Positions 12 through 59,156 of a stretch of 64,000 bases of DNA are shown here, in pieces. Made by a program: the position numbers and the translations under genes. Source of the stretch: a virus; the IMG/VR virus record IMGVR_UViG_3300045988_069849, positions 162,273 through 226,272 of that record. One strand, 5' to 3'. Position 1 is the stretch's first letter. Every line of letters starts with the position of its first letter. Below the pieces are notes generated by a model that saw nothing but the letters and a program-made list of their open reading frames with translations, was not told where the DNA came from and searched no databases.

Positions 12-1313
12 TCAACACTAATTTCTTTTATATCATAGTTATAGTAATAAGTACCGTTCCCAAGTTTTTGGATTGTCTAAGGATAAACGTCCATTTGTAT
101 TCTATTCGGCTCTAACATAAGGTGTTATTTTAAAATTTATAGGAAATTTGTATCTAAGCAAAGAATAGTGTAATCTCCTATTCTTACTTTTAAAATAGTA
201 GGGTTTATTGTTATACATGAAATGTACTCGAAAATGATTGTCATAATCAACAACCTCTACAATGTGAATATATTTATTATAAAACTTAGATATGTTAACT
301 TCTTTTCCATTCCAGTTAGAGAATTTCAATCCAGTTAATTCCTCTACCTTTCTCAGCAAGTTCTTAGAGTTGCAAAATTTCATCCATCCAAAATAAGACC
401 TCATTCTTCTATTCAATTCATCTTTATCAATCTTATTCTATTTATATAGATTTATAAGCCTAAACATCCTCATTTTTATAGATTTTTTCAGTAGAACATG
501 AGTATGATAGAATTTATAGCCTACGAAATCAATACCTCTGCTTTCTACAGGGAATATTTGATAATTAGGCTTCAACTCTAGGTTAAGAACCTGTTTCAAA
601 TATAGTTTTATAGATACTAATACATTTCTCAAATAATTCTTGTCATTACCAAGAATCACAATATCGTCAGCATATCGAAAGTAGTACTTACATTTTAACT
701 CCTCTTTTACCCAGTGGTCAAAATATGTCAGATATAAATTTGCAAAGAATTGTGATAGATAATTTCCAATAGGAACTCCCTTCGCTGAATAAATTATTTC
801 TTTCAACAGTTTTAATAGTTTTTTATCCTTTATCTTTCTCTATAACATTTCGTATAAAATGTCGTGAGTTATAGAAGGATAGAATTTTTTTATATCCATT
901 TTCAAGCAATACTTTGTTTCTTCTGGATGTTTCTATAACACCTTAAACAAATCATACTCTACTTTATGAATACCTCTATTTCGTATAGAGGAATATGTTT
1001 GGTCTATAAATATACTAGTCCAAATAGGCTCCATAATATTCATTATAGCATGGTGAGTTATTCTATCTGGATAGTATGGAAGTCTAAAGATTAATCTTTC
1101 TTTAGGTTCGTATATTATAAAGGTACTATATTCAGAGGTTTGATAAATCAAATCCCTTAACTTATCGGATAATTCCTTATTTTCTTTTAATCTATTCTTA
1201 TCATGCTGCTTGATTCCACATCTAATAGACTTATTTCTTCTAGCTTTATCGTCAGCTAGTTCGATGTTATCTTCAGCGTATACTTTCTCGTGCAAATATC
1301 CTACACGTTTCAA
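12..1313 (-). CDS. DGR reverse transcriptase; one frame read through in-frame TAG codons at 102-104, 438-440, 840-842, 933-935 (and 18-20)
   Basis: ORF-track fragments 933..1313, 438..806 and 102..416 (-) share one frame (lower coordinate = 0 mod 3) and each ends on TAG. The fragments contain RT motifs: RLIFRLPYYPDRITHHAIM (motifs 1-2), GVPIGNYLSQ (DGR-type SQ motif), YADDIVILG (YxDD). N-terminus LHEKVYAEDNIELADDKARRNKS resembles the DGR RT N-terminus. Apparent start is TTG at 1311-1313; putative TGA stop at 12-14. Confidence 0.8.
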
Positions 1314-1450
1314 TTTTTTATATATTTCATCGGAAGCGTTCGAGAATTAACCTACTAACACCCTTCATTCAACACTACGTTATCTTTTGCCTAGAGGCAA
1401 GGATATTACTTAGCAAACTAAAAAAAAATAATAAAATGTTTCTAAATATA

Positions 1451-1556
1451 TAATAACTCGACATTGGAATTGGCATTGCTGACGTCATTGTTAGAATTGA
1501 AATAGCTGAGACCTGCATTGCTGCCATTATTCGCGTTGCTGCCTACTAGCAGTACT
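1451..1556 (-). repeat. DGR template repeat (TR), A-rich in sense orientation
   Basis: A ~105-nt segment between the RT and the target gene. It is homologous to 1656-1762 and to 29043-29140. All ~27-28 mismatches against each copy fall at adenines of this copy, read on the minus strand. Confidence 0.8.
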
Positions 1557-1630: not shown

Positions 1631-3448
1631 TTAAGATACTCTATTCAGAGTCCTGAACCCGACAATGGAAGAGGCACCGCCGACGCCACCGTCAGAATTG
1701 AAACAGCCGAGACCCGCACCGCCGCCAACATTCGCGCCGCCGCCCACCCGCAGCGTGCGAAGCGCTGTGCTGCTTGCGTTGCAGTAATGGTAATCGCAAA
1801 TATAAGTAGTAGCACTTCCTCCAACAGCGGATGGAATTATTTCAGCGGTTTCACCTAAGTCAAATGCCTTAATATAACCATCAGATGCTACTTCGTATCC
1901 TGCAACGGTTTTCTCTCCAACTACGTCGGTAAATTCCGATACGTTAGTAGTTGTATAGACAGTGCTAATCTCATTAGCAGCTGCTCTCACTATAACTACT
2001 CCGTCCAGGTTAGTCCAAATGTCTCCAAACGGATTATCGAACCCTCTCCAGCGAGGTACTTTAAATGTATGAGTTGCTACTGTATTTGTGCCATCTTGAG
2101 CTGTACATTCTGGAATAACTAAATCTTTTACTCCAGTGAAGTTACCAAATTCATTGCAGTAACCACAAGGCGTAAGTGGATATGTTGCATTATATCCTGA
2201 CCAACTTGTAGCTGCGTTAGCCCAATCTGTAACTCCAGGTCCCAAACCCCCTTGATGATATCCATCCGCAGTTAACTCTGCATTATATGCAGCCTAAGAA
2301 TTAAAATTAGCATATTCAATGACATAATTCCAGTAGAATATCCATTTGTAATATTCATAGCATAGCAATTCTGAACCAGCATTTGTTGCATATGTTCTCA
2401 TAGTAGCTCTAGAAATATTAGTTCTAGGCTTTCCTAAATCACTTCTGAATATATCCTTAGTTTCTAATTCTGTAGTTAGATAATCATCGTAGTTAGCTCT
2501 ATTTCCTCCACCTCTAAATGCAGTAGTAGTATTAACTACTGATACAGCTTTTGGAGTTGCGGAGACTGTGGTATCAACTGTACTTCTGTATGCATCTATT
2601 AATAGTTCAGGAATTTCTACCCATGAATCATCAATTTTGACAGTAGAAGTTCTAACCCATCTTTTGTTTCCATCGCTGCCAGATTTTCCATAAAATTTAG
2701 GAGTATTAACTCTTACTGTTCCATCAGTTCCATCTAAGACAGATGGAGTTTCTCCGTCTTCTTTATAAGACCAGTCATCTGGAAACAGATAGTAATTTAC
2801 TACATCATTGTTTGCTACACAACCTCTATACGCTGATTGAATAGGAAGAGATTTATGCAGCAAAGGATTACCTATTCTAGTAAGTTCCGGAGATGCTACT
2901 GTAACATCCCATTCTACTCCATAGGAATATAAATCCATATTACTATTTAGCTCAGTAATCTACTTATCAAGCTTTTGTTGTGCCTTCTACAATTCTTCCC
3001 AAGCCTCATTTAGCGCTGTAAATTGCTCTTCTAGCTTAGAACTTGAATCTGCCCATTCAGCAGTACCATCTGCTGAGAAAACTAGCATCTATCCAGATGC
3101 TCCTCCAGATGGAATATGTTTATTTCCAGAAGTAGTTGGATGTACATAATTATTAGCATTATTAGCTATAGTACTTAACTTTTCCTTCTCAGTTTCAGTA
3201 TAATTGGCTTCAGAAAGTCCCTTTCCTAACTCCTTATCTACTTTGCCTTCAAGCTCACCCTTAGTAGCTAATTCACTAATATCCTAATGCTCAGTTAAAT
3301 ATCCACTATCATTCTGTAACTAAGAAGTTTTAGTTGGAATTGCATTAGCCTTGGCATATGTCGTATCTATAACATTTCCAGCACCATCGTAAGTAGCTTT
3401 TAAATCGTATGTGGTTTCCCCAACCTTTATAGATTTGATTGCTGCCAT
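1631..3448 (-). CDS. tail fibre / receptor-binding protein (~605 aa); DGR target with VR1 at its C-terminus; in-frame TAGs at 2294, 2960, 2987, 3089, 3284, 3320
   Basis: One frame (lower coordinate = 2 mod 3) runs from ATG 3446-3448 to TAA 1631-1633, linking ORF-track fragments 2294..2938 and 1631..2245. It contains the conserved tail-fibre motif HIPSGGASG[Q]MLVFSADGTAEWAD, in which the Gln is encoded by TAG. The C-terminal ~35 aa are encoded by the GC-rich VR. Confidence 0.7.
1656..1762 (-). repeat. DGR variable repeat VR1
   Basis: A GC-rich island in an AT-rich genome. It aligns to the TR with ~28 substitutions, all but at most one at TR adenines. It lies at the 3' end of the tail-fibre ORF. 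Confidence 0.8.
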
Positions 3449-19292: not shown

Positions 19293-19306
19293 TATTAATT
19301 TTGGCG

Positions 19307-19378
19307 TTGCCCTACTAGGATTCGAACCCAGACTAAATGATTTAGAGTCATCTGTGCTGACCATTACACCATAGGGCA
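19307..19378 (-). tRNA. amber suppressor tRNA, anticodon CUA (reads UAG), tRNA-Gln-derived
   Basis: Cloverleaf: acceptor tgcccta/tagggca, D-arm gtgt-aatggtca-gcac, anticodon stem gatga/tcatt with loop CUCUAAA (positions 34-36 = CUA), variable tagt, T-arm ctggg-ttcgaat-cctag, discriminator A. D-arm and T-arm are nearly identical to tRNA-Gln(UUG) at 34205-34276. Confidence 0.8.
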
Positions 19379-20683: not shown

Positions 20684-21666
20684 AAGATTGGGGAGAAATC
20701 CCCTTTCTTTTACATACAAATAATCTTTGTAGAAATGGACATAAGAAAAAAGTTTAAGACTATAAAGTGTTTGTATAATTGGGGCATAATCTATGACCCA
20801 AAGACTAATGAAAAGTTAAATTTCAAATCCAAACGTGTTTATTGCGTAACTTCTTGGGCTTGGATTATGACCTATCAAAAGTCAGAAGAAGATATTCCTG
20901 AGATAATTAGGATACTCTTTGTAGATTAACTCTAAGGTACTATGAGTTTTAAATAAAGTGCCCACATGAACCCCATCATCGGAACGTTGGTTAACGGGGA
21001 AAACAACATCACAACAAATCAAATCAAAGTTTTTGTTTAGTTTTAGGATTGTATCTGGCAGCTTGGAAAGACAAGCAAAATCTTTATACCTATCTGCTAA
21101 TAGGTTTAGTGTTCAACGCGAAAATTCGGTAAAGGAAGGAGAGAAATTGTCCACTAAAAAGACCCTCAATTTCCGGACTTTTTCCGATTTTCAAAAAATC
21201 CGCCAGAGTAGGAGTTATATAGCTCACACTCTCTATAGACATTATTTAGTATTTAGCCTATAAAAAGGCAACAAAAAGCGAGGCTACGCAGAAGAGCCTA
21301 ACACCAAAAATAACTGCTACAAATTCTATGTGCATATTCGCAAACTTGAGCACTATAGGATTTAGGTTGAGCTGTAAGGATTGGTCACTTATAGCAATAT
21401 TATGAGTACTGCTGATATGTCAGTGACCGTACATATCACATATAAAATATGTTATACAATTATGTTAGAAGTTGCCAGGTCTAAGAAGCCTGATTAAAAT
21501 CTCTAGATAGTAAGAGAGAACCTCATAAGGGTTCATTTTCCATCTCGAATCTATTCGCAAGTTTTGAGATTAGCTACCTCAGAATTTAGTGAACGTTGAT
21601 AACGTTGTATGTCTGGAAAACATACTAAATAATCTCCTATCTTATACTAGTTGTCAAGATAGGATT

Positions 21667-21737
21667 TCCCCATTAGTATAATGCTATTGCGCCTTCCTCT
21701 AAAGAAGGAGATTCTGGTTCGAGTCCAGAATGGGGAA
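21667..21737 (+). tRNA. tRNA-like with anticodon CUA (second candidate amber suppressor), non-canonical D-arm
   Basis: Acceptor tccccat/atgggga (U1-A72), anticodon stem ccttc/gaagg with loop CUCUAAA, variable agat, T-arm tctgg-ttcgagt-ccaga, discriminator A. The D-arm lacks G18G19 and pairs weakly. Confidence 0.4.
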
Positions 21738-22097
21738 CTTGGTATTTGAGGACTACAACTACTTGTAGACTCTGTTGCAGTTAAAGATTATAATGGGTAC
21801 GCCCTGAGACTAATGCAGAGCATCTCTTATGAATAGAGGTGTCTTATCGTGAGATAAGGCAAAGTATTGTGAGATTGAGAGAATTACTAGCTAAAATGTT
21901 AGAAGAAGACCCAGATTCAAGTAGCAATATCTACAAAGAAATATGGGGAGCTTATACTGCTGGGATGAACTCCTTGCTCGAGTAGCAACAATTCCAAGCT
22001 TGGTGAATTAAAACTAGCTAACCTAATTACTCTTTATAAGGTTGAGAATGTAAAAAGAGAATTGGAATGGTAAGCCCATCTCCCTTCGTCCTTTGCT

Positions 22098-27682: not shown

Positions 27683-27934
27683 ATGAGTACGGAAAAGGAT
27701 ACTTGCCAGAAATCTGGTACTAGTGTAATATTCCAAAAAGAAATTACGCAGTGTAGGGAATGTCCTCATTGTAGAATCGCTCCTGACCCAGACCCTGACG
27801 ACTGGTTCAATGACGATGATGAAAAAGCGCTTTGTAAAGAAGCAGGGAATAAACTAATTGAGGGAATGTTAAGACCTTACGAAAGGGTATTAATTCCGGA
27901 TTGGTGTCCATTAAAAACTAATAAACAAAAATGA
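27683..27934 (+). CDS. Cys-containing small protein
   Basis: ORF track; CRECPHC... Confidence 0.45.
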   Translation: MSTEKDTCQKSGTSVIFQKEITQCRECPHCRIAPDPDPDDWFNDDDEKALCKEAGNKLIEGMLRPYERVLIPDWCPLKTNKQK

Positions 27935-28395
27935 ATAGAATTAAGACAAAAGCCTATCTTGAGGTAACTTTAGAGCAGGCACGCGAATGGTATGAAAGCG
28001 GTAATGAAGACTTGAAGAAATTAGCTCTTACTGCATTTAGTGAGGAAATGCTAATTCCTTCCTTTAAAGAGATAGTAGAGTCTGAAGAAGATTATGGTTT
28101 TTGGAATACATTAGTATGTCCTCCAAGCATGACAGAACAACTCAGTTCTCTAGCTAGTTTACAAATAGTTGCTAACTATCTAAATAAAGGATGGATCAAA
28201 ACAGAAGGTAATACTGGCTATTTTCTTGGAAAAGGTTCTTCTCTATCTGGAAAGACGGAAACTGATATAAAAGGAGTGTACGTCGTCATGCATCAAAACG
28301 TAAAATATCCAGGTATTGTTTATTTTAGAACTGTAGCTGATGCACAGAAAGCGGTAAAGATTCTTGGTAAAAAGTTATTGCCGTTGTTTGAATAA
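27931..28395 (+). CDS. hypothetical protein (154 aa)
   Basis: ORF track. Confidence 0.55.
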   Translation: MNRIKTKAYLEVTLEQAREWYESGNEDLKKLALTAFSEEMLIPSFKEIVESEEDYGFWNTLVCPPSMTEQLSSLASLQIVANYLNKGWIKTEGNTGYFLGKGSSLSGKTETDIKGVYVVMHQNVKYPGIVYFRTVADAQKAVKILGKKLLPLFE

Positions 28396-28405
28396 ATGAT
28401 TAGAT

Positions 28406-28479
28406 GGTGTTATTAGTTCAGTTGGCAGAACGCTACATTGTGGCTGTAGAGGTCAGCGGTTCGAATCCGCTATAACACC
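28406..28479 (+). tRNA. tRNA-His (GTG) with encoded G-1
   Basis: G-1 precedes acceptor gtgttat/ataacac; discriminator C73; anticodon arm ctaca-ttGTGgc-tgtag; T-arm agcgg-ttcgaat-ccgct. Confidence 0.8.
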
Positions 28480-28697
28480 CATAGTATAATTCCCAGAACG
28501 ATCAACAAATTGGCAGATGTACAGTGTTATCTCATAACAAGACATAGTGTAGAGTCTTAGGAAAGTCTGAATAAGTGAAGAATCGGAACTCTTATTAATT
28601 ATATTATGAAAGATAGAAAATTATTTTGGTTTTGGTTTTGTGTAATATCTATAATTTACATAATTACCTATTGGTGTTTTATTAAAAATTACAACGA

Positions 28698-29258
28698 ATG
28701 AAAAAGACAATTGAAATCGAATGTCCTGATGGTTACAAACCAGTTTACAATGCAGAGACTGGAAAAGTAGAAATTGTGTCTGAAGACATTACTGCAAGGG
28801 TACAGACTTACGAAGATGCTTGTAAAATCATGAGTAGAGATGTCTATGGTAATGTTCCTGCAAATTTCTCTGTTGATGCTTTGCGCAAATTGCACGTCAT
28901 TCTCGATGCCTTAAACGAAGGACATAAGTTTAATCTATTAACTGGAACTGTATGGTATCCTTGGGTTCGGTTCTTTAGAATGAAATCAGTACCGAAAGAT
29001 GCAGAGGTCATTGGACACTTCCGTTATCAGGGCGAGAAATTCGCGTTGGTGGGCGGCGGCGCGAATGTTGGCGGCGATGCGGGTCTCGGCTCTTTCTATT
29101 CTGACTATGGCGTCGGCGATGCCTGTTCCATTGTCGGGTTGCTTGCGTGCAAATCTGAGGAGATTGCCAAATATGTATCAACTCAGTTTGGCAAACTCGT
29201 ATTCGAAGCTTGTTTTGCCAGACACTTCAATGTAGGAGAATTTGAATGGCTAGACTAA
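28698..29258 (+). CDS. second DGR target protein (186 aa) carrying VR2 near its C-terminus
   Basis: ORF track. Residues ~115-150 (LVGGGANVGGDAGLGSFYSDYGVGDACSIVGL) are encoded by VR2. They parallel the tail-fibre C-terminus LRVGGGANVGGGAGLGCFNSDGGVGGASSIVGF. Confidence 0.7.
   Translation: MKKTIEIECPDGYKPVYNAETGKVEIVSEDITARVQTYEDACKIMSRDVYGNVPANFSVDALRKLHVILDALNEGHKFNLLTGTVWYPWVRFFRMKSVPKDAEVIGHFRYQGEKFALVGGGANVGGDAGLGSFYSDYGVGDACSIVGLLACKSEEIAKYVSTQFGKLVFEACFARHFNVGEFEWLD
29043..29140 (+). repeat. DGR variable repeat VR2 (remote, opposite strand to TR/RT)
   Basis: Aligned to the TR sense strand there are 27 mismatches, every one at a TR adenine. VR2 also differs from VR1 at many of the same positions. 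Confidence 0.8.
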
Positions 29259-29506
29259 TTGTAATTCTACTATTGCTTGCCTCATGCACACACGATAAGG
29301 TAGTAAATCACAATCAAACTGATACCATAAAGTATGAAGAGATATATTGCCCAAATTGTGATGGAATTGGTCAAGTAAAGATGTCAGCTGGGTCTAGAGT
29401 TGTATTAGGCATCCTTACACTAGGTCCAGGTGCTCTTTGTGATACCGAATCATGTAGTATGTGCAATGGAACAGGAATAGTTAAAAGAAGAGTACTAAAC
29501 AAATGA
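29246..29506 (+). CDS. small lipoprotein-like/Cys-rich protein
   Basis: ORF track; MARLIVILLLLASCTHDK... is a signal peptide with a lipobox-like LASC. Confidence 0.45.
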   Translation: MARLIVILLLLASCTHDKVVNHNQTDTIKYEEIYCPNCDGIGQVKMSAGSRVVLGILTLGPGALCDTESCSMCNGTGIVKRRVLNK

Positions 29507-29982
29507 AGAAATTTTTAATGCTTATTGTGGCTATGCTCTTTATGAGTGTAGCCTCATTCTCTCAAATAACCATATCTCAAGAAGATTATGATAGGTTGCC
29601 TGGAGAGACGAGAACCCAAATCGAGAAAATAACTACCGAGAAGGCTATAAAAGGAGAAATCAAAGAAGTATCTGAATATGCAAGTCTCGGAAAGGAGATT
29701 GGAGTTGCAGTAAATGAGACACTAAAAGCAGTTGAAGATTCGGCTATAAGAATATCTGAATCTAATCTAGGACAAACAGCGATAACTATTGTAGTATGGA
29801 AATTACTATATAAGGAGATAGCTGGAGTCGTAATAGGTATACTACTGCTAGGAATATCTCTATTTTTACTAATAACTGGAAGAGGAAAACTATCTAAAGA
29901 CGATGAAGATGCTGGCGGATGGATAAGTGTAGTCGGTGGCGCAGTATTCTTTATTTCTTCTATGATTTGTGTATTTGGCTGA
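29503..29982 (+). CDS. membrane protein (signal peptide plus C-terminal TM helices)
   Basis: ORF track. Confidence 0.55.
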   Translation: MKKFLMLIVAMLFMSVASFSQITISQEDYDRLPGETRTQIEKITTEKAIKGEIKEVSEYASLGKEIGVAVNETLKAVEDSAIRISESNLGQTAITIVVWKLLYKEIAGVVIGILLLGISLFLLITGRGKLSKDDEDAGGWISVVGGAVFFISSMICVFG

Positions 29983-30272: not shown

Positions 30273-30491
30273 ATGAAGAGAATTAGATTAATTTGTATGA
30301 TGGCTGTTGTAGCAATAGTTACGGCAGTCTGTTGTTCGTTTACTTCTAGGGAAGACCGAAATCATTTTTCGGTTATAAAGGTATATACCGACCCTAATAG
30401 TCACATGAATGTCTATAGAGTCTCCGTTCCTGGGAGAGTGTATTACGTACTTCATAATACGACTCAAGGAGGGTTATGTAAATTACAATGA
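30273..30491 (+). CDS. small secreted/membrane protein
   Basis: ORF track. Confidence 0.4.
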   Translation: MKRIRLICMMAVVAIVTAVCCSFTSREDRNHFSVIKVYTDPNSHMNVYRVSVPGRVYYVLHNTTQGGLCKLQ

Positions 30492-31015
30492 GCGAAACTT
30501 ATTATCTCTTAGCAGCCATTTCGTATGGCATTTTTATTGTTCAGTTCATACTCTCTTGGTTTGGTGGCGACACTGACTTAGATGTAGATTTAGATGGAGA
30601 ATTGGACATGGATGTGAGTGATATTGTCTCTTTTAAAGGACTAGTACATTTTGTAATGGGAGCAAGTGGATGGCTTTGTATTAAGCATTCCGTTTCTCAT
30701 TCTATAGAATGGTACGATTATTTAATCGCATTAATATGCGGTATTCTTTTTGTGGTTATACTTTACTACTTATATAAACTTTGTTTAAAACTCCAACATC
30801 AAGTTATTCCTGAAAAGGGTGAAGCCTTAGTTGGGAGAATTGGAACAATCACTATCCCTAATGATATTTCTGGTGGTAGTTCTGTTATCTTAGTTGAGAT
30901 AAATGGAATGCTTCAAGAATTGTCAGCTTATGCTGAAGAAGAGCATAAGACGTATAAAAACGGGGACAAAGTGAGAATTTCAAAATTTGAGAATGGAAAG
31001 TATTATTTTAACTAA
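30488..31015 (+). CDS. NfeD-like membrane protein (partner of SPFH proteins)
   Basis: N-terminal TM helices plus a C-terminal OB-like region GEALVGRIGTITIPN...GDKVRISKFENGKYYF. Lies directly upstream of, and translationally coupled to, the SPFH gene. Confidence 0.55.
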   Translation: MSETYYLLAAISYGIFIVQFILSWFGGDTDLDVDLDGELDMDVSDIVSFKGLVHFVMGASGWLCIKHSVSHSIEWYDYLIALICGILFVVILYYLYKLCLKLQHQVIPEKGEALVGRIGTITIPNDISGGSSVILVEINGMLQELSAYAEEEHKTYKNGDKVRISKFENGKYYFN

Positions 31016-31030
31016 AAAGAATTTTTAAAG

Positions 31031-41364: not shown

Positions 41365-41437
41365 GGGCCGTTAGCTCAAATGGCTAGAGCGCTGGTTTTG
41401 CACACCGGAAGATAGGGTTCGAGTCCCTGCGTGTCCA
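41365..41437 (+). tRNA. tRNA-Ala-like (TGC) with G3-U70 but an imperfect acceptor stem (possible pseudo-tRNA)
   Basis: D-arm gctc-aaatggcta-gagc; anticodon arm ctggt-ttTGCac-accgg; T-arm taggg-ttcgagt-ccctg. Acceptor gggccgt vs cgtgtcc pairs only at positions 1-4. Confidence 0.45.
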
Positions 41438-43322: not shown

Positions 43323-43884
43323 GGGCCTACTTGGATTTGACAGGCGATTACAAATTATAAGGACGTGTAGAGCGCAATCTCTTTAAACGAAGAAAAAACA
43401 ATAAATGCTACTTATAGCGAAGTAAGAATGGCAGCCTAAGCTGCTGGCTTGTTGGTAGACACTATTAACTAAGTCGGGTTACGGGAGAGACCTAGAAACA
43501 GAAGAGGTTGAGTATATTGATATAATGGAGAGCTAGGCTCTAATCCTAGTAATATACTCTTAATCAGAACACTCTAAGAGTTAGTAAGACTGAATCTCCT
43601 ACGTCATAAAACAGATGGAAGATGTGTTCCATGAGATGTGACGAATCTCTAAAGTATCATCCCGTTCTCCAACGTAAATGGAGTGGTGGAACGTTGACTT
43701 CGGTCAGCCCTATAGTTTGGTAGCTTGTAGATAAGCATCTAGAGAAATACTTAGTATGGACTCTTGTAAGACTTATAAAACTACCTAAATGCTAGAACTC
43801 CCTAGCTGATGTAATAAAAATGAGACGCACGTTATCCTTGTAACGAGGGTTGTTTGGACACGGGTTCGACTCCCGTTAGGTCCA
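43323..43884 (+). ncRNA. ssrA: candidate phage-encoded tmRNA (ssrA-like), ~560 nt
   Basis: 5' end gggccta ttggatttgacaggcg resembles the tmRNA 5' consensus (acceptor + GGAUUCGACGGG). 3' end ggac-acggg-ttcgact-cccgt-taggtcc-A forms a T-arm plus acceptor 3' strand. The 7-bp acceptor gggccta/taggtcc has G3-U70, the tRNA-Ala identity element. An internal tag-like ORF starts at GCA: AISLNEEKTINATYSEVRMAA followed by TAA. There is no protein-coding ORF across ~560 nt. Confidence 0.5.
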
Positions 43885-43887
43885 CAT

Positions 43888-56804: not shown

Positions 56805-57615
56805 GATAATAGGGCAAGACAAGTTAATTAAGGAAGTTAATAGAATATTTCAGGTATTTATAAATAGTAATTGCAAGATAAGACCGCACTTTATTCTTAC
56901 AGGTGAGAGCGGGTCTGGTAAGAGCTTTACTATTAAACAGTTATGTGATATGAATGAACTTAGCTTTCTAGAAGTTAATGCAGCTCAAATAACTAAAGAG
57001 GGTATTTCTGGAAATAGTTTAAGCAAAATTCTATCTCCACTTGTTAACTATAGTCACACACCTATTGTAGTCTTCGTAGACGAGTTTGATAAACTTTTCA
57101 TCAACGGAAACACTAATAGCCAACTGGCTAATGAATCTACTGCCAGTGTACAGAACGAGTTTCTCAAACTTTTAGAGTCTGATACTACTAGTGTTTTTGG
57201 CGATTATGGGAAGTACATATCAGTCCCTATTGATAATGTACTATTTGTGTTTGCTGGAGCATTCAATAATGAGCCTCACATTACATTAGATAGACTAAGA
57301 GACTTTGGAGTTAAAACAGAGTTTCTTGGAAGAGTAGGATTAATCTACAATACTAAACCTCTCACTCTAGAGGATTTGTATTCTATCTTGGAGTGTTCAG
57401 ACTTGTTGCAGAATTATCTTGACTTATTCTTTAATGTAAATAGAGAACAAGTCATTAGTGATTTGAAAGGGTATCTCGAAAGTTCTTTTCGCAATAATAC
57501 TCTTGGAGCAAGAACAATTAATACTCTTATTCACCAATACTTTATCAAAGGTGGAAAACTCGAAACTGAAGAAGTAAAAGAAATAACTTTTAACAAAAAA
57601 TTAGAATGGAAATAA
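56791..57615 (+). CDS. AAA+ ATPase (274 aa)
   Basis: Walker A GESGSGKS; Walker B VVFVDEFDK. Confidence 0.65.
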   Translation: MTMSKIIGQDKLIKEVNRIFQVFINSNCKIRPHFILTGESGSGKSFTIKQLCDMNELSFLEVNAAQITKEGISGNSLSKILSPLVNYSHTPIVVFVDEFDKLFINGNTNSQLANESTASVQNEFLKLLESDTTSVFGDYGKYISVPIDNVLFVFAGAFNNEPHITLDRLRDFGVKTEFLGRVGLIYNTKPLTLEDLYSILECSDLLQNYLDLFFNVNREQVISDLKGYLESSFRNNTLGARTINTLIHQYFIKGGKLETEEVKEITFNKKLEWK

Positions 57616-59156
57616 TTAATGCTACAGATGGTTACAAGTTGGGCCATCACAGAATGTACCCCGAAGGTACTGAACAAGTTTATAGTAACTGGACTCCTAG
57701 AAGTAATAAATACTTCCCAGAAGCAACCGAAGGTTCAGTAGTATTTGGTATTCAATACCTAATCAAAGAATATCTCATTAAACAGTTTGAGAAAAACTTC
57801 TTTAATCTACCAAAGAAGGAAGCTGTGGAGATGTTCTATCGTAGAGTAAACAACTTTGTTGGTATTGAATCCGTTGGGTACAGACATATTGAAGCTTTAT
57901 ATGACCTTGGGTATCTACCAATTCGCATAAAGGCTCTTCCTGAAGGTTCTGTGTGCCCTATTCGGGTTCCCATGATGACCATTACAAATACTCTACCCGA
58001 GTTCTTTTGGTTAACTAACTACTTAGAGACTATTATCAGCTGTACCTTGTGGATGCCATGCACATCTGCTACTAGAGCTAGGCTTTATAAGAAAGAGCTA
58101 CATCGTCATGCTTGCAAGACTGGTTTTCCAACAGATGTAAATCTTGGTTTTTGTTGTCATGATTTCTCAATGCGAGGTATGGCGGGAATGGAAGCCGCAA
58201 TTATATCTGGTATGGCGCATATGACTTCTTTTGTGGGAAGTGAAACTATTCCAGCTATTGCTGCTTTGGAAGAATATTATGGAGCTAATTCAGACGAGGA
58301 ATTGATTGCTGCTACAGTTCCAGCAACAGAACACTCTGTAATGTGTGCTGGAGGGGAGGAAGATGAGCTGGGCACTTTCAAACGTCTAATTAATGATTTG
58401 TATCCTTCTGGGTTTGTTTCTATTGTATCTGATACTTGGGATTTCTGGAATGTAATTGAAAATTTCTTGCCCAAGCTGAAGAAAGACATTATGGCTCGTG
58501 ATGGTAGAGTAGTAATCCGTCCTGATAGTGGAGACCCAGTAGATATAATCTGCGGGTTGAGAACTAATCCTCACTTCAATACCAGAATGAAAGAAGGTAA
58601 GTATTATTGCTGCTATGCTCCGTTTAACGACGATGCAGAGTATGTTGAAGTGTCCGAAGGTCAATATTATGGGGCATATTATATGCTTGGTAAAATCTTC
58701 GGATGGAATACTACTTCAAAGGATTACCGTTATCCTAGCACTAAGGTTGGTCTGCTTTATGGAGATTCTATTACTCTGGAACGTCAAAAGCAAATCTACT
58801 TGAGATTAGAAAACGCTCATATGGCGGCTTGTAATCTCGTTCTGGGAGTAGGTTCATATTCCTATCAGTATGCAAGTAGAGATAGTCTTGGGTTTGCTAT
58901 TAAGGCTACTGCTTGCGTAGTAAATGGCGAATTGAAAGAAATCTTCAAACATCCTAAAACTGATGATGGTACTAAGAACTCTTTGAAAGGTTTGATTGCT
59001 GTCTATAAATGTCTGGATGGGAAGTATACTGCTACCGACCAGGTCTCAATCGAGGAGGAAAAAGAGGGATGCTTAGAGACTGTCTTTGAAGATGGTATCT
59101 TGAAGAAAGAATATTCTCTTGAAGAAATCAGACAAAGAATTGACCATGGACTTTAA
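57606..59156 (+). CDS. nadV: nicotinamide phosphoribosyltransferase (NAMPT/NadV)
   Basis: N-terminal DGYKLGHHRMYPEGTEQVYSNWTPR matches the NAMPT signature. Length 516 aa. Confidence 0.7.
   Translation: MEIINATDGYKLGHHRMYPEGTEQVYSNWTPRSNKYFPEATEGSVVFGIQYLIKEYLIKQFEKNFFNLPKKEAVEMFYRRVNNFVGIESVGYRHIEALYDLGYLPIRIKALPEGSVCPIRVPMMTITNTLPEFFWLTNYLETIISCTLWMPCTSATRARLYKKELHRHACKTGFPTDVNLGFCCHDFSMRGMAGMEAAIISGMAHMTSFVGSETIPAIAALEEYYGANSDEELIAATVPATEHSVMCAGGEEDELGTFKRLINDLYPSGFVSIVSDTWDFWNVIENFLPKLKKDIMARDGRVVIRPDSGDPVDIICGLRTNPHFNTRMKEGKYYCCYAPFNDDAEYVEVSEGQYYGAYYMLGKIFGWNTTSKDYRYPSTKVGLLYGDSITLERQKQIYLRLENAHMAACNLVLGVGSYSYQYASRDSLGFAIKATACVVNGELKEIFKHPKTDDGTKNSLKGLIAVYKCLDGKYTATDQVSIEEEKEGCLETVFEDGILKKEYSLEEIRQRIDHGL

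Follow-up and report, generated by a model that had tools for sequence, protein, structure and literature searches.

Transfer of sequence from a template repeat (TR) to a VR, with changes specific to adenines, is known from BPP-1, where an AAY-rich TR diversifies a receptor-binding protein (Mtd). More than one target can be served by the same DGR. In Quimbyvirus ('Quimbyviridae'; Benler et al., 2021, PMC8008677) one reverse transcriptase (RT) and one TR act on two, a target beside the tail-fibre genes and a distal one on the opposite strand among non-structural genes, and near-identical genomes show adenine-specific variation at both (PMC8008677). In the tentaclin DGRs (PMC10743442) one DGR serves two proteins of differing architecture that share a VR-type module. 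In Zeta crAss-like phages the DGRs (PMC12386605) have the order tail fibre-VR-TR-RT, an RT with the GxxxSQ motif and, in most cases, no Avd, and these phages also present amber suppression within the RT genes and a tRNA block that includes a CTA suppressor tRNA. We have found each of these traits in the locus described here.

The window, that is, the whole stretch of 64,000 nucleotides of viral DNA that was analysed, carries at its left end a DGR cassette on the minus strand, transcribed in the order tail fibre-VR1-TR-spacer-RT. As the initial annotation had proposed, there is also a remote TR-like repeat, VR2, located in a small plus-strand gene about 27.5 kb from the TR and RT and on the opposite strand to them. 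Our sequence comparisons indicate that VR2 is a real, active and remote second DGR target, and we give a probability of about 0.85 to the reading that a single DGR keeps this second target active and diversifies it separately from VR1.

The first target gene (1631..3448, minus strand) codes for a tail-fibre-like protein of 605 aa with six in-frame TAG codons, its assignment as a tail fibre with a C-type lectin coming from PMC12386605. VR1 (1656..1748, minus strand) occupies the 3' end of this gene, with only 8 residues of the protein remaining after it, and differs from the TR at 24 positions, 24/24 at adenines. The non-coding TR core (1455..1547, minus strand; 30 adenines) is near-invariant across 22 related genomes, and VR1 lies upstream of it across a gap of 108 nt. 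Between TR and RT there is a non-coding spacer of 141 nt (1314..1454, minus strand), strongly conserved across related loci and containing a hairpin, TTGCCT-CT-AGGCAA, at 1400-1387; by analogy with BPP-1, the DGR RNA probably has its structured 3' part here. The RT (39..1313, minus strand; RVT_1, E=8.9e-20) has the sequence IGNYLSQ at the GxxxSQ motif. Three in-frame TAG codons precede position 102, and a fourth, at 102, would let the protein extend to 39 if suppressed. A search with this RT matched 159 records, Bordetella phage records included, and its closest named relatives are the DGR RTs of crAss-like phages (52-58% identity). We found no Avd-like accessory gene in or beside the cassette, where VR1, TR and RT leave no room for one between them, and Avd is also absent from most Zeta crAss-like DGRs (PMC12386605). 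In locus L033, the ORFs downstream of the RT gave no match in Pfam. The cassette of the window has a DGR-type RT, TR/VR pairs that differ only at TR adenines, and a near-constant TR with VRs that are hypervariable among close relatives.

VR2 lies in target gene 2 (28698..29258, plus strand), which codes for 186 aa and has no in-frame TAG, signal peptide or Pfam match. In the ungapped register the core common to the three repeats is 93 nt long (VR2 29048..29140, plus strand; VR1 1748-1656; TR 1547-1455). It is found in the 3' third of the ORF, in agreement with its first placement near the 3' end of the gene, and codes for residues 117-148, the segment LVGGGANVGGDAGLGSFYSDYGVGDACSIVGL. The 22 differences between VR2 and the TR are all located on the 30 TR adenines (22/22; hypergeometric P=4.8e-15). 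The initial annotation had counted 27 mismatches, every one at a TR adenine, in the interval 29043-29140; the adenine-only pattern holds for the 93-nt core, but that interval begins 5 nt too early and contains 25 mismatches, three of which (29043, 29044 and 29046) are off the TR adenines. When the 3' part of the target gene was compared by BLAST with the window, only two other matches appeared: VR1, over 93 nt at 92.5% identity, and the TR, over 110 nt at 73.6% (E=6e-19).

The two VRs of the window differ from each other at 7 of 93 positions, 7/7 at TR-A sites, and have the same base at 23 of the 30 A sites, so the earlier description of VR2 as differing from VR1 at many of these sites was overstated. 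With only seven differing sites the window alone cannot show that the VRs are independent, and it is the related genomes that settle the question. We matched the VR2 locus with the RT/TR/VR1 locus of the same genome in 22 IMG/VR genomes and determined VR concordance from 20 of them. In these 20 pairs the TR was near-constant, VR1 and VR2 departed from it almost only at A, the VR alleles differed in every genome and the non-A positions within the VRs were invariant. The agreement between VR1 and VR2 at the 30 A sites was 14.7±1.6 within genomes, against a between-genome baseline of 14.9±2.3. Distinct A-site alleles together with no excess of concordance within genomes indicate that VR2 has been rewritten repeatedly and separately from VR1. 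The claim of independent diversification therefore stands across the 20 genomes, but not as it had been argued from the window, where the VRs are unusually alike. We also considered that VR1 and VR2 might co-vary, for instance if the small protein bound the receptor of the fibre (as in superinfection exclusion), and rejected this since the 20 genomes show no within-genome correlation.

The likeness in the window deserves separate treatment. Among 21 genomes this one is the sole outlier, the other 20 having no such likeness. Specifically, its VR1 and VR2 share 15 of the 22 truly variable sites against a null mean of 7.3 (empirical and Monte-Carlo P≈0.0012), and the first seven variable A sites, at the 5' end, are identical (P≈0.006). 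These numbers are suggestive of VR1 and VR2 histories that are not fully separate in this genome. Gene conversion between VR1 and VR2, or such an exchange followed by partial homing anchored at the 3' side, would account for an identical 5' part next to a diverged 3' part, and in the window lineage the match of VR2 to the TR runs on for one more base on the 3' side (GGGTT vs GGGAT in most relatives). We take a swap of this kind as possible, if somewhat doubtful: it concerns a lone outlier, whose P is only about 0.03 once corrected for 21 genomes, an equal score was reached by one unrelated pair in 760, and a chimeric assembly over a hypervariable repeat, or chance, could give the same picture.

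The gene that carries VR2 is in the standard-code early/tRNA block and begins 218 nt after tRNA-His (28407-28480), the neighbour first pointed out for it. The window has 29-30 tRNA genes, two of them with the anticodon CTA. One of these amber-suppressor tRNAs (19306..19378, minus strand) is required for the translation of the RT and the tail fibre, and the second is found at 21667..21738 (plus strand), directly downstream of a RAGATH-14 RNA (21467-21638, plus strand; 185 bits). Rfam also detected a phage tmRNA at 43323-43887 (plus strand; 62 bits, gathering score 47) and a tRNA at 41365-41437 (plus strand), neither of which was reported by ARAGORN. The minus-strand block, which runs from 1 to about 20 kb, has 22 in-frame TAG per 1000 codons in its long ORFs vs about 2.6 in the plus-strand block (20000-64000), and the latter are mostly spurious read-through. 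In recoded phages it is generally the late genes that are recoded and not the early ones. Since the VR2 gene has no in-frame TAG, where about four would be expected of a late gene, it appears to be of the early type. The RT, with its 3-4 in-frame TAG codons, can be made only after the suppressor tRNAs act.

Around the VR2 gene we found tRNAs and small ORFs, together with genes for an SPFH/Band-7 protein, NAMPT and an AAA ATPase. The auxiliary genes of the early block include the one for NAMPT (nicotinamide phosphoribosyltransferase; 57606-59156, plus strand) and the SPFH/Band-7 gene with a small membrane protein before it (30488-32989, plus strand). The upstream neighbour (27931..28395, plus strand) codes for a paralogue of 154 aa that shares the N-terminal domain of about 85 aa and lacks the VR module, its C-terminal half being different and non-variable; nearly all relatives have it in a syntenic position. 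The downstream neighbour (29503..29982, plus strand) is a conserved protein of 159 aa that has a signal peptide and, in its C-terminal part, transmembrane segments. The order orf83, 154-aa paralogue, target, 159-aa membrane protein is kept in nearly all relatives, and tRNA-His is not part of this conserved synteny. Two small ORFs overlap the target gene, one of 31 codons, hydrophobic, at its start (28606-28701, plus strand; ATGA) and one of 86 aa, lipoprotein-like and with two CxxC pairs, at its end (29246-29506, plus strand). Each of them was present in only 1-2 of 32 related loci and we have rejected both as conserved partners.

In the protein of 186 aa an N-terminal domain (residues ~1-95) is followed by the VR module at 113-152 and then by two helices at the C-terminal end, so VR2 is not at the extreme C-terminus: 38 residues, forming the two helices and a strand, come after it. 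It matches phrog_11581, annotated as of unknown function, and an exhaustive search of the family gave 244 representatives at 50% identity, mostly of 180-210 aa. Pfam had no match for the target protein, the target family, the C-terminus of the tail fibre or the neighbouring proteins. A weak match of the N-terminus to colicin Ib, obtained in a profile search of PDB sequences, was treated as due to chance. The AlphaFold2 model built from an alignment of 90 sequences was confident (pLDDT 94.5, pTM 0.88) and superseded a run with a shallow alignment of 36 near-identical sequences (pLDDT 45). The structure prediction that had been called for thus gave a good model, but one without a match to any solved structure (PDB), C-type lectins included, and among predicted viral structures it matched uncharacterised members of its own family only. 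As modelled, the VR domain does not match a C-type-lectin fold; the predicted order of elements, β-β-α-α-β-β-β, leaves room for a very divergent lectin-like fold.

The VR-encoded segment had been described as paralleling the tip of the tail fibre, and this is correct for a module of 40 aa and not for the remainder of the protein, which is unrelated to the fibre. When the family profile was aligned with tail-fibre C-termini (hhalign), only residues 113-152 aligned with 168-207, with a probability of 96%. Since the homology is limited to these 40 residues, the same TR-encoded module is placed on two otherwise unrelated scaffolds. The non-variable neighbour at 27931-28395 has the N-terminal ~85-100 residues in common with the target protein (probability 97%), and the same domain is found in the small RT-adjacent targets of distant DGRs (loci L088-L090, L095 and L096; probability 98.7%).

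The homology of the module with the fibre tip could be taken to mean that the protein of 186 aa is a component of the virion, an auxiliary receptor-binding or decoration protein, and that the DGR diversifies two host-recognition proteins. Receptor-binding proteins are the usual targets of phage DGRs (PMC10743442), and structural proteins are likewise without signal peptides. We consider this unlikely. The gene is on the early strand, surrounded by tRNA and auxiliary genes, and is free of the recoded TAG codons that most long ORFs in the structural block contain. Its N-terminal domain is common to a non-variable neighbouring paralogue and to other small proteins rather than to fibre or baseplate proteins, and neither BFVD nor PDB gave a structural-protein match to the model. 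From position, codon usage and the absence of a signal peptide, the most likely reading, and a somewhat probable one, is that the protein is an early, intracellular and diversified binder of non-structural nature. With ~12 variable surface residues about 10^13 sequences would be possible, a repertoire that would allow it to track a variable host factor.

The variation of VR2 in populations, which the initial annotation had asked to look for, was found and is confined to residues encoded by TR adenines. The protein matched 836 clusters at 90% identity, nearly all of 186 aa and 91-95% identical, on contigs that reach about 190-200 kb. Among 118 near-identical homologues, 11 columns (residues 121, 123, 124, 127, 132, 134, 136, 137, 141, 143 and 145) had an entropy of 2.3-3.6 bits and the remainder of the protein was near-invariant. 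In the TR, AAY and TAT codons correspond to these 11 residues, and at its AGC and GAC codons the homologues toggle between G and S or between G and D. The spectrum of amino acids at the variable residues was the one predicted from AAY codons, and the flanking codons were about 99% conserved. The hypervariability of the homologues, together with VR differences restricted to A, bears out the proposal that one TR and RT serve two targets.

The same data decide against VR2 being a fossil, copied once from VR1 by duplication or gene conversion, which the DGR has stopped rewriting or never rewrote. The 92.5% identity of the two VRs in the window and the seven matching variable A sites at their start would fit such an origin. 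However, VR2 alleles differ between nearly all pairs of related genomes, and only at TR-A; even the seven differences between the VRs of the window are all at TR-A sites; and across the 20 genomes VR2 is no nearer to the VR1 of its own genome than to that of others, so the recent duplication that had been named as a possible refutation does not hold. We regard a fossil as very improbable. Ordinary strain divergence or recombination with no retroelement is hardly tenable, for although the homologues come from many samples and not from one clone, their variation is limited to TR-adenine codons between conserved flanking codons, the non-A positions in the VR do not vary, and the amino-acid spectrum follows the AAY codons.

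We have searched for the remote target beyond the window lineage. Two subfamilies, with proteins of 198 and 193 aa that are 35-40% identical to that of the window, are hypervariable at the same positions of the module. We also took the TR of a sister lineage, the RT of which is 73% identical, and searched IMG/VR for its A-to-N pattern. Several genomes of this lineage contained the TR, VR1 and one remote match, and all the remote matches were in this small-protein family. By circular distance they were 36-49 kb away from the TR, in every case on the opposite strand. IMGVR_UViG_3300045988_106556 (174 kb; loci L133, L135 and L136) has four TR-type repeats, namely the TR, the VR of the tail fibre and a pair of remote VRs, separated by 4.9 kb, in paralogous members of the family; by its sequence it would be a three-target DGR. 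The sister lineage and the distant subfamilies indicate that the remote small-protein target is a conserved feature of the clade and no accident of the window genome, and a family kept as target across lineages must matter to the phage. In the distant DGRs at L088, L089, L090, L095 and L096 (RT about 58% identical) it is the RT-adjacent target that is a small protein, with the shared N-terminal domain (KTFEDA, ALNEGW and WYPWF motifs) and a different VR module. Queries with the region and with the protein gave no match in the INPHARED phage collection, from which the lineage is absent.

A wider proposal can be put forward only tentatively, and we consider it rather doubtful as a whole. The family of ~190 aa may be an unrecognised DGR scaffold other than the C-type lectin, made of a conserved N-terminal docking domain and a 40-aa module borrowed from fibre tips, and act as a small, early, intracellular protein that can be programmed to bind variable host factors, for example defence proteins. 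Large recoded crAss-like phages would diversify it throughout a clade, in parallel to the fibre and with 1-2 copies per genome.

As to how the target is recognised, the homology of 93 nt at about 70% identity is the only shared feature demonstrated between the TR and VR2. An IMH-like element, ccattgtcgggtt, had been suggested as common to both VRs. In other genomes the T that both VRs have here behaves as an ordinary variable A site, and only the change A->G (core column 89) is fixed; for this reason we have dropped the idea. We found no IMH-like element shared 3' of VR1 and VR2, their homology ending at core column 90-92. The sole likeness past the cores is a hairpin apex, TCTGAAnAGA (TCT-GARN-AGA), at different distances 3' of the two VRs. 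The folding energy of these hairpins was no better than that of shuffled sequences (z = +0.98 and -0.41), and their stems are interrupted in some relatives and missing from other lineages.

The outcome at each TR adenine depends on its context. Adenines before G (1547, 1544, 1540, 1522, 1514, 1507, 1480 and 1458) appear as G in 94-97% of the VR copies (173 and 257 site observations; window lineage and other TR families, loci L033-L112). For adenines in AA or AT contexts all four bases appear. At four-fold-degenerate third positions 79 of 82 adenines before G were found as G, across 16 contexts, so selection at the protein level does not explain this pattern. A preprint on the BPP-1 RT describes an effect of the 3' neighbour that has the same direction but is far weaker.

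The opposite orientation of the two targets may be related to replication. According to a 2025 preprint, the DGR of BPP-1 edits targets that are co-directional with replication far better than reversed ones (bioRxiv 10.1101/2025.08.18.670894). In the window the sign of the GC skew flips at ~20 kb, the same place where gene orientation and TAG recoding change, so that the skew is confounded with orientation, and both VR genes point away from this switch. If the origin were located there, each VR would be co-directional with its own fork and opposite strands would be expected. The orientation of VR1 (minus) and VR2 (plus) would therefore fit the preference of DGRs for co-directional targets.

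Taking BPP-1 as a model, we propose that the TR (1455-1547, minus strand) is transcribed together with the conserved 3' spacer, and that the RT would be made once the amber-suppressor tRNAs of the phage act. The resulting cDNA would replace the homologous tract of 93 nt at VR1, upstream of the TR in the tail-fibre gene at a distance of 108 nt, and would also replace VR2, 27.5 kb away and in inverse orientation. The newly written VR2 allele would then be expressed in the following infection.

The system indicates that lytic-type, crAss-like gut phages spend hypermutation on a protein that is not part of the tail. Should the protein be intracellular, it would offer a tractable case to find out what non-structural DGR targets bind. 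One template of 93 nt serving two unrelated scaffolds is also a natural test of the portability of DGR variable modules. Repeats far from the RT were seen in several gut phages by Gulyaeva et al. The global DGR survey searched up to 20 kb from the RT, and its annotated VR regions were systematically C-type lectins; the window of DGRscan is 10 kb. At 27.5 kb, and 36-49 kb in the sister lineages, VR2 exceeds both of these limits, and the RT is also split by TAGs, so standard surveys miss it.

When compared with the known systems, the arrangement is closest in layout to that of Quimbyvirus. Unlike it, the phage of the window belongs to an amber-recoded crAss-like lineage of ~185-192 kb, and its RT is interrupted by recoded TAGs instead of the frameshifts of Quimbyvirus. 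The distal target of Quimbyvirus is a C-type-lectin protein in a defence-related island, whereas here it is a small family without a C-type-lectin match in a tRNA/auxiliary block. With the Zeta crAss-like phages, compared by features alone, the window shares the large genome, the tRNA block, the CTA tRNA, the recoding of late genes and the Avd-less cassette; the paper on them (PMC12386605) describes cassette-proximal targets only, with extra TR-VR pairs in two phages, and no remote small-protein target. The BPP-1 system acts on one target and includes Avd, a defined GC-rich IMH and a cruciform downstream, three elements that we did not find in the window. Both targets of the tentaclin DGRs have recognisable C-type-lectin domains and are read as receptor-binding, whereas the second target of the window lacks such a match and looks non-structural. 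In the literature we found no report of the 186-aa family as a DGR target. The two-target layout is thus already known; what is new is the lineage and the target family, and possibly also the scaffold.
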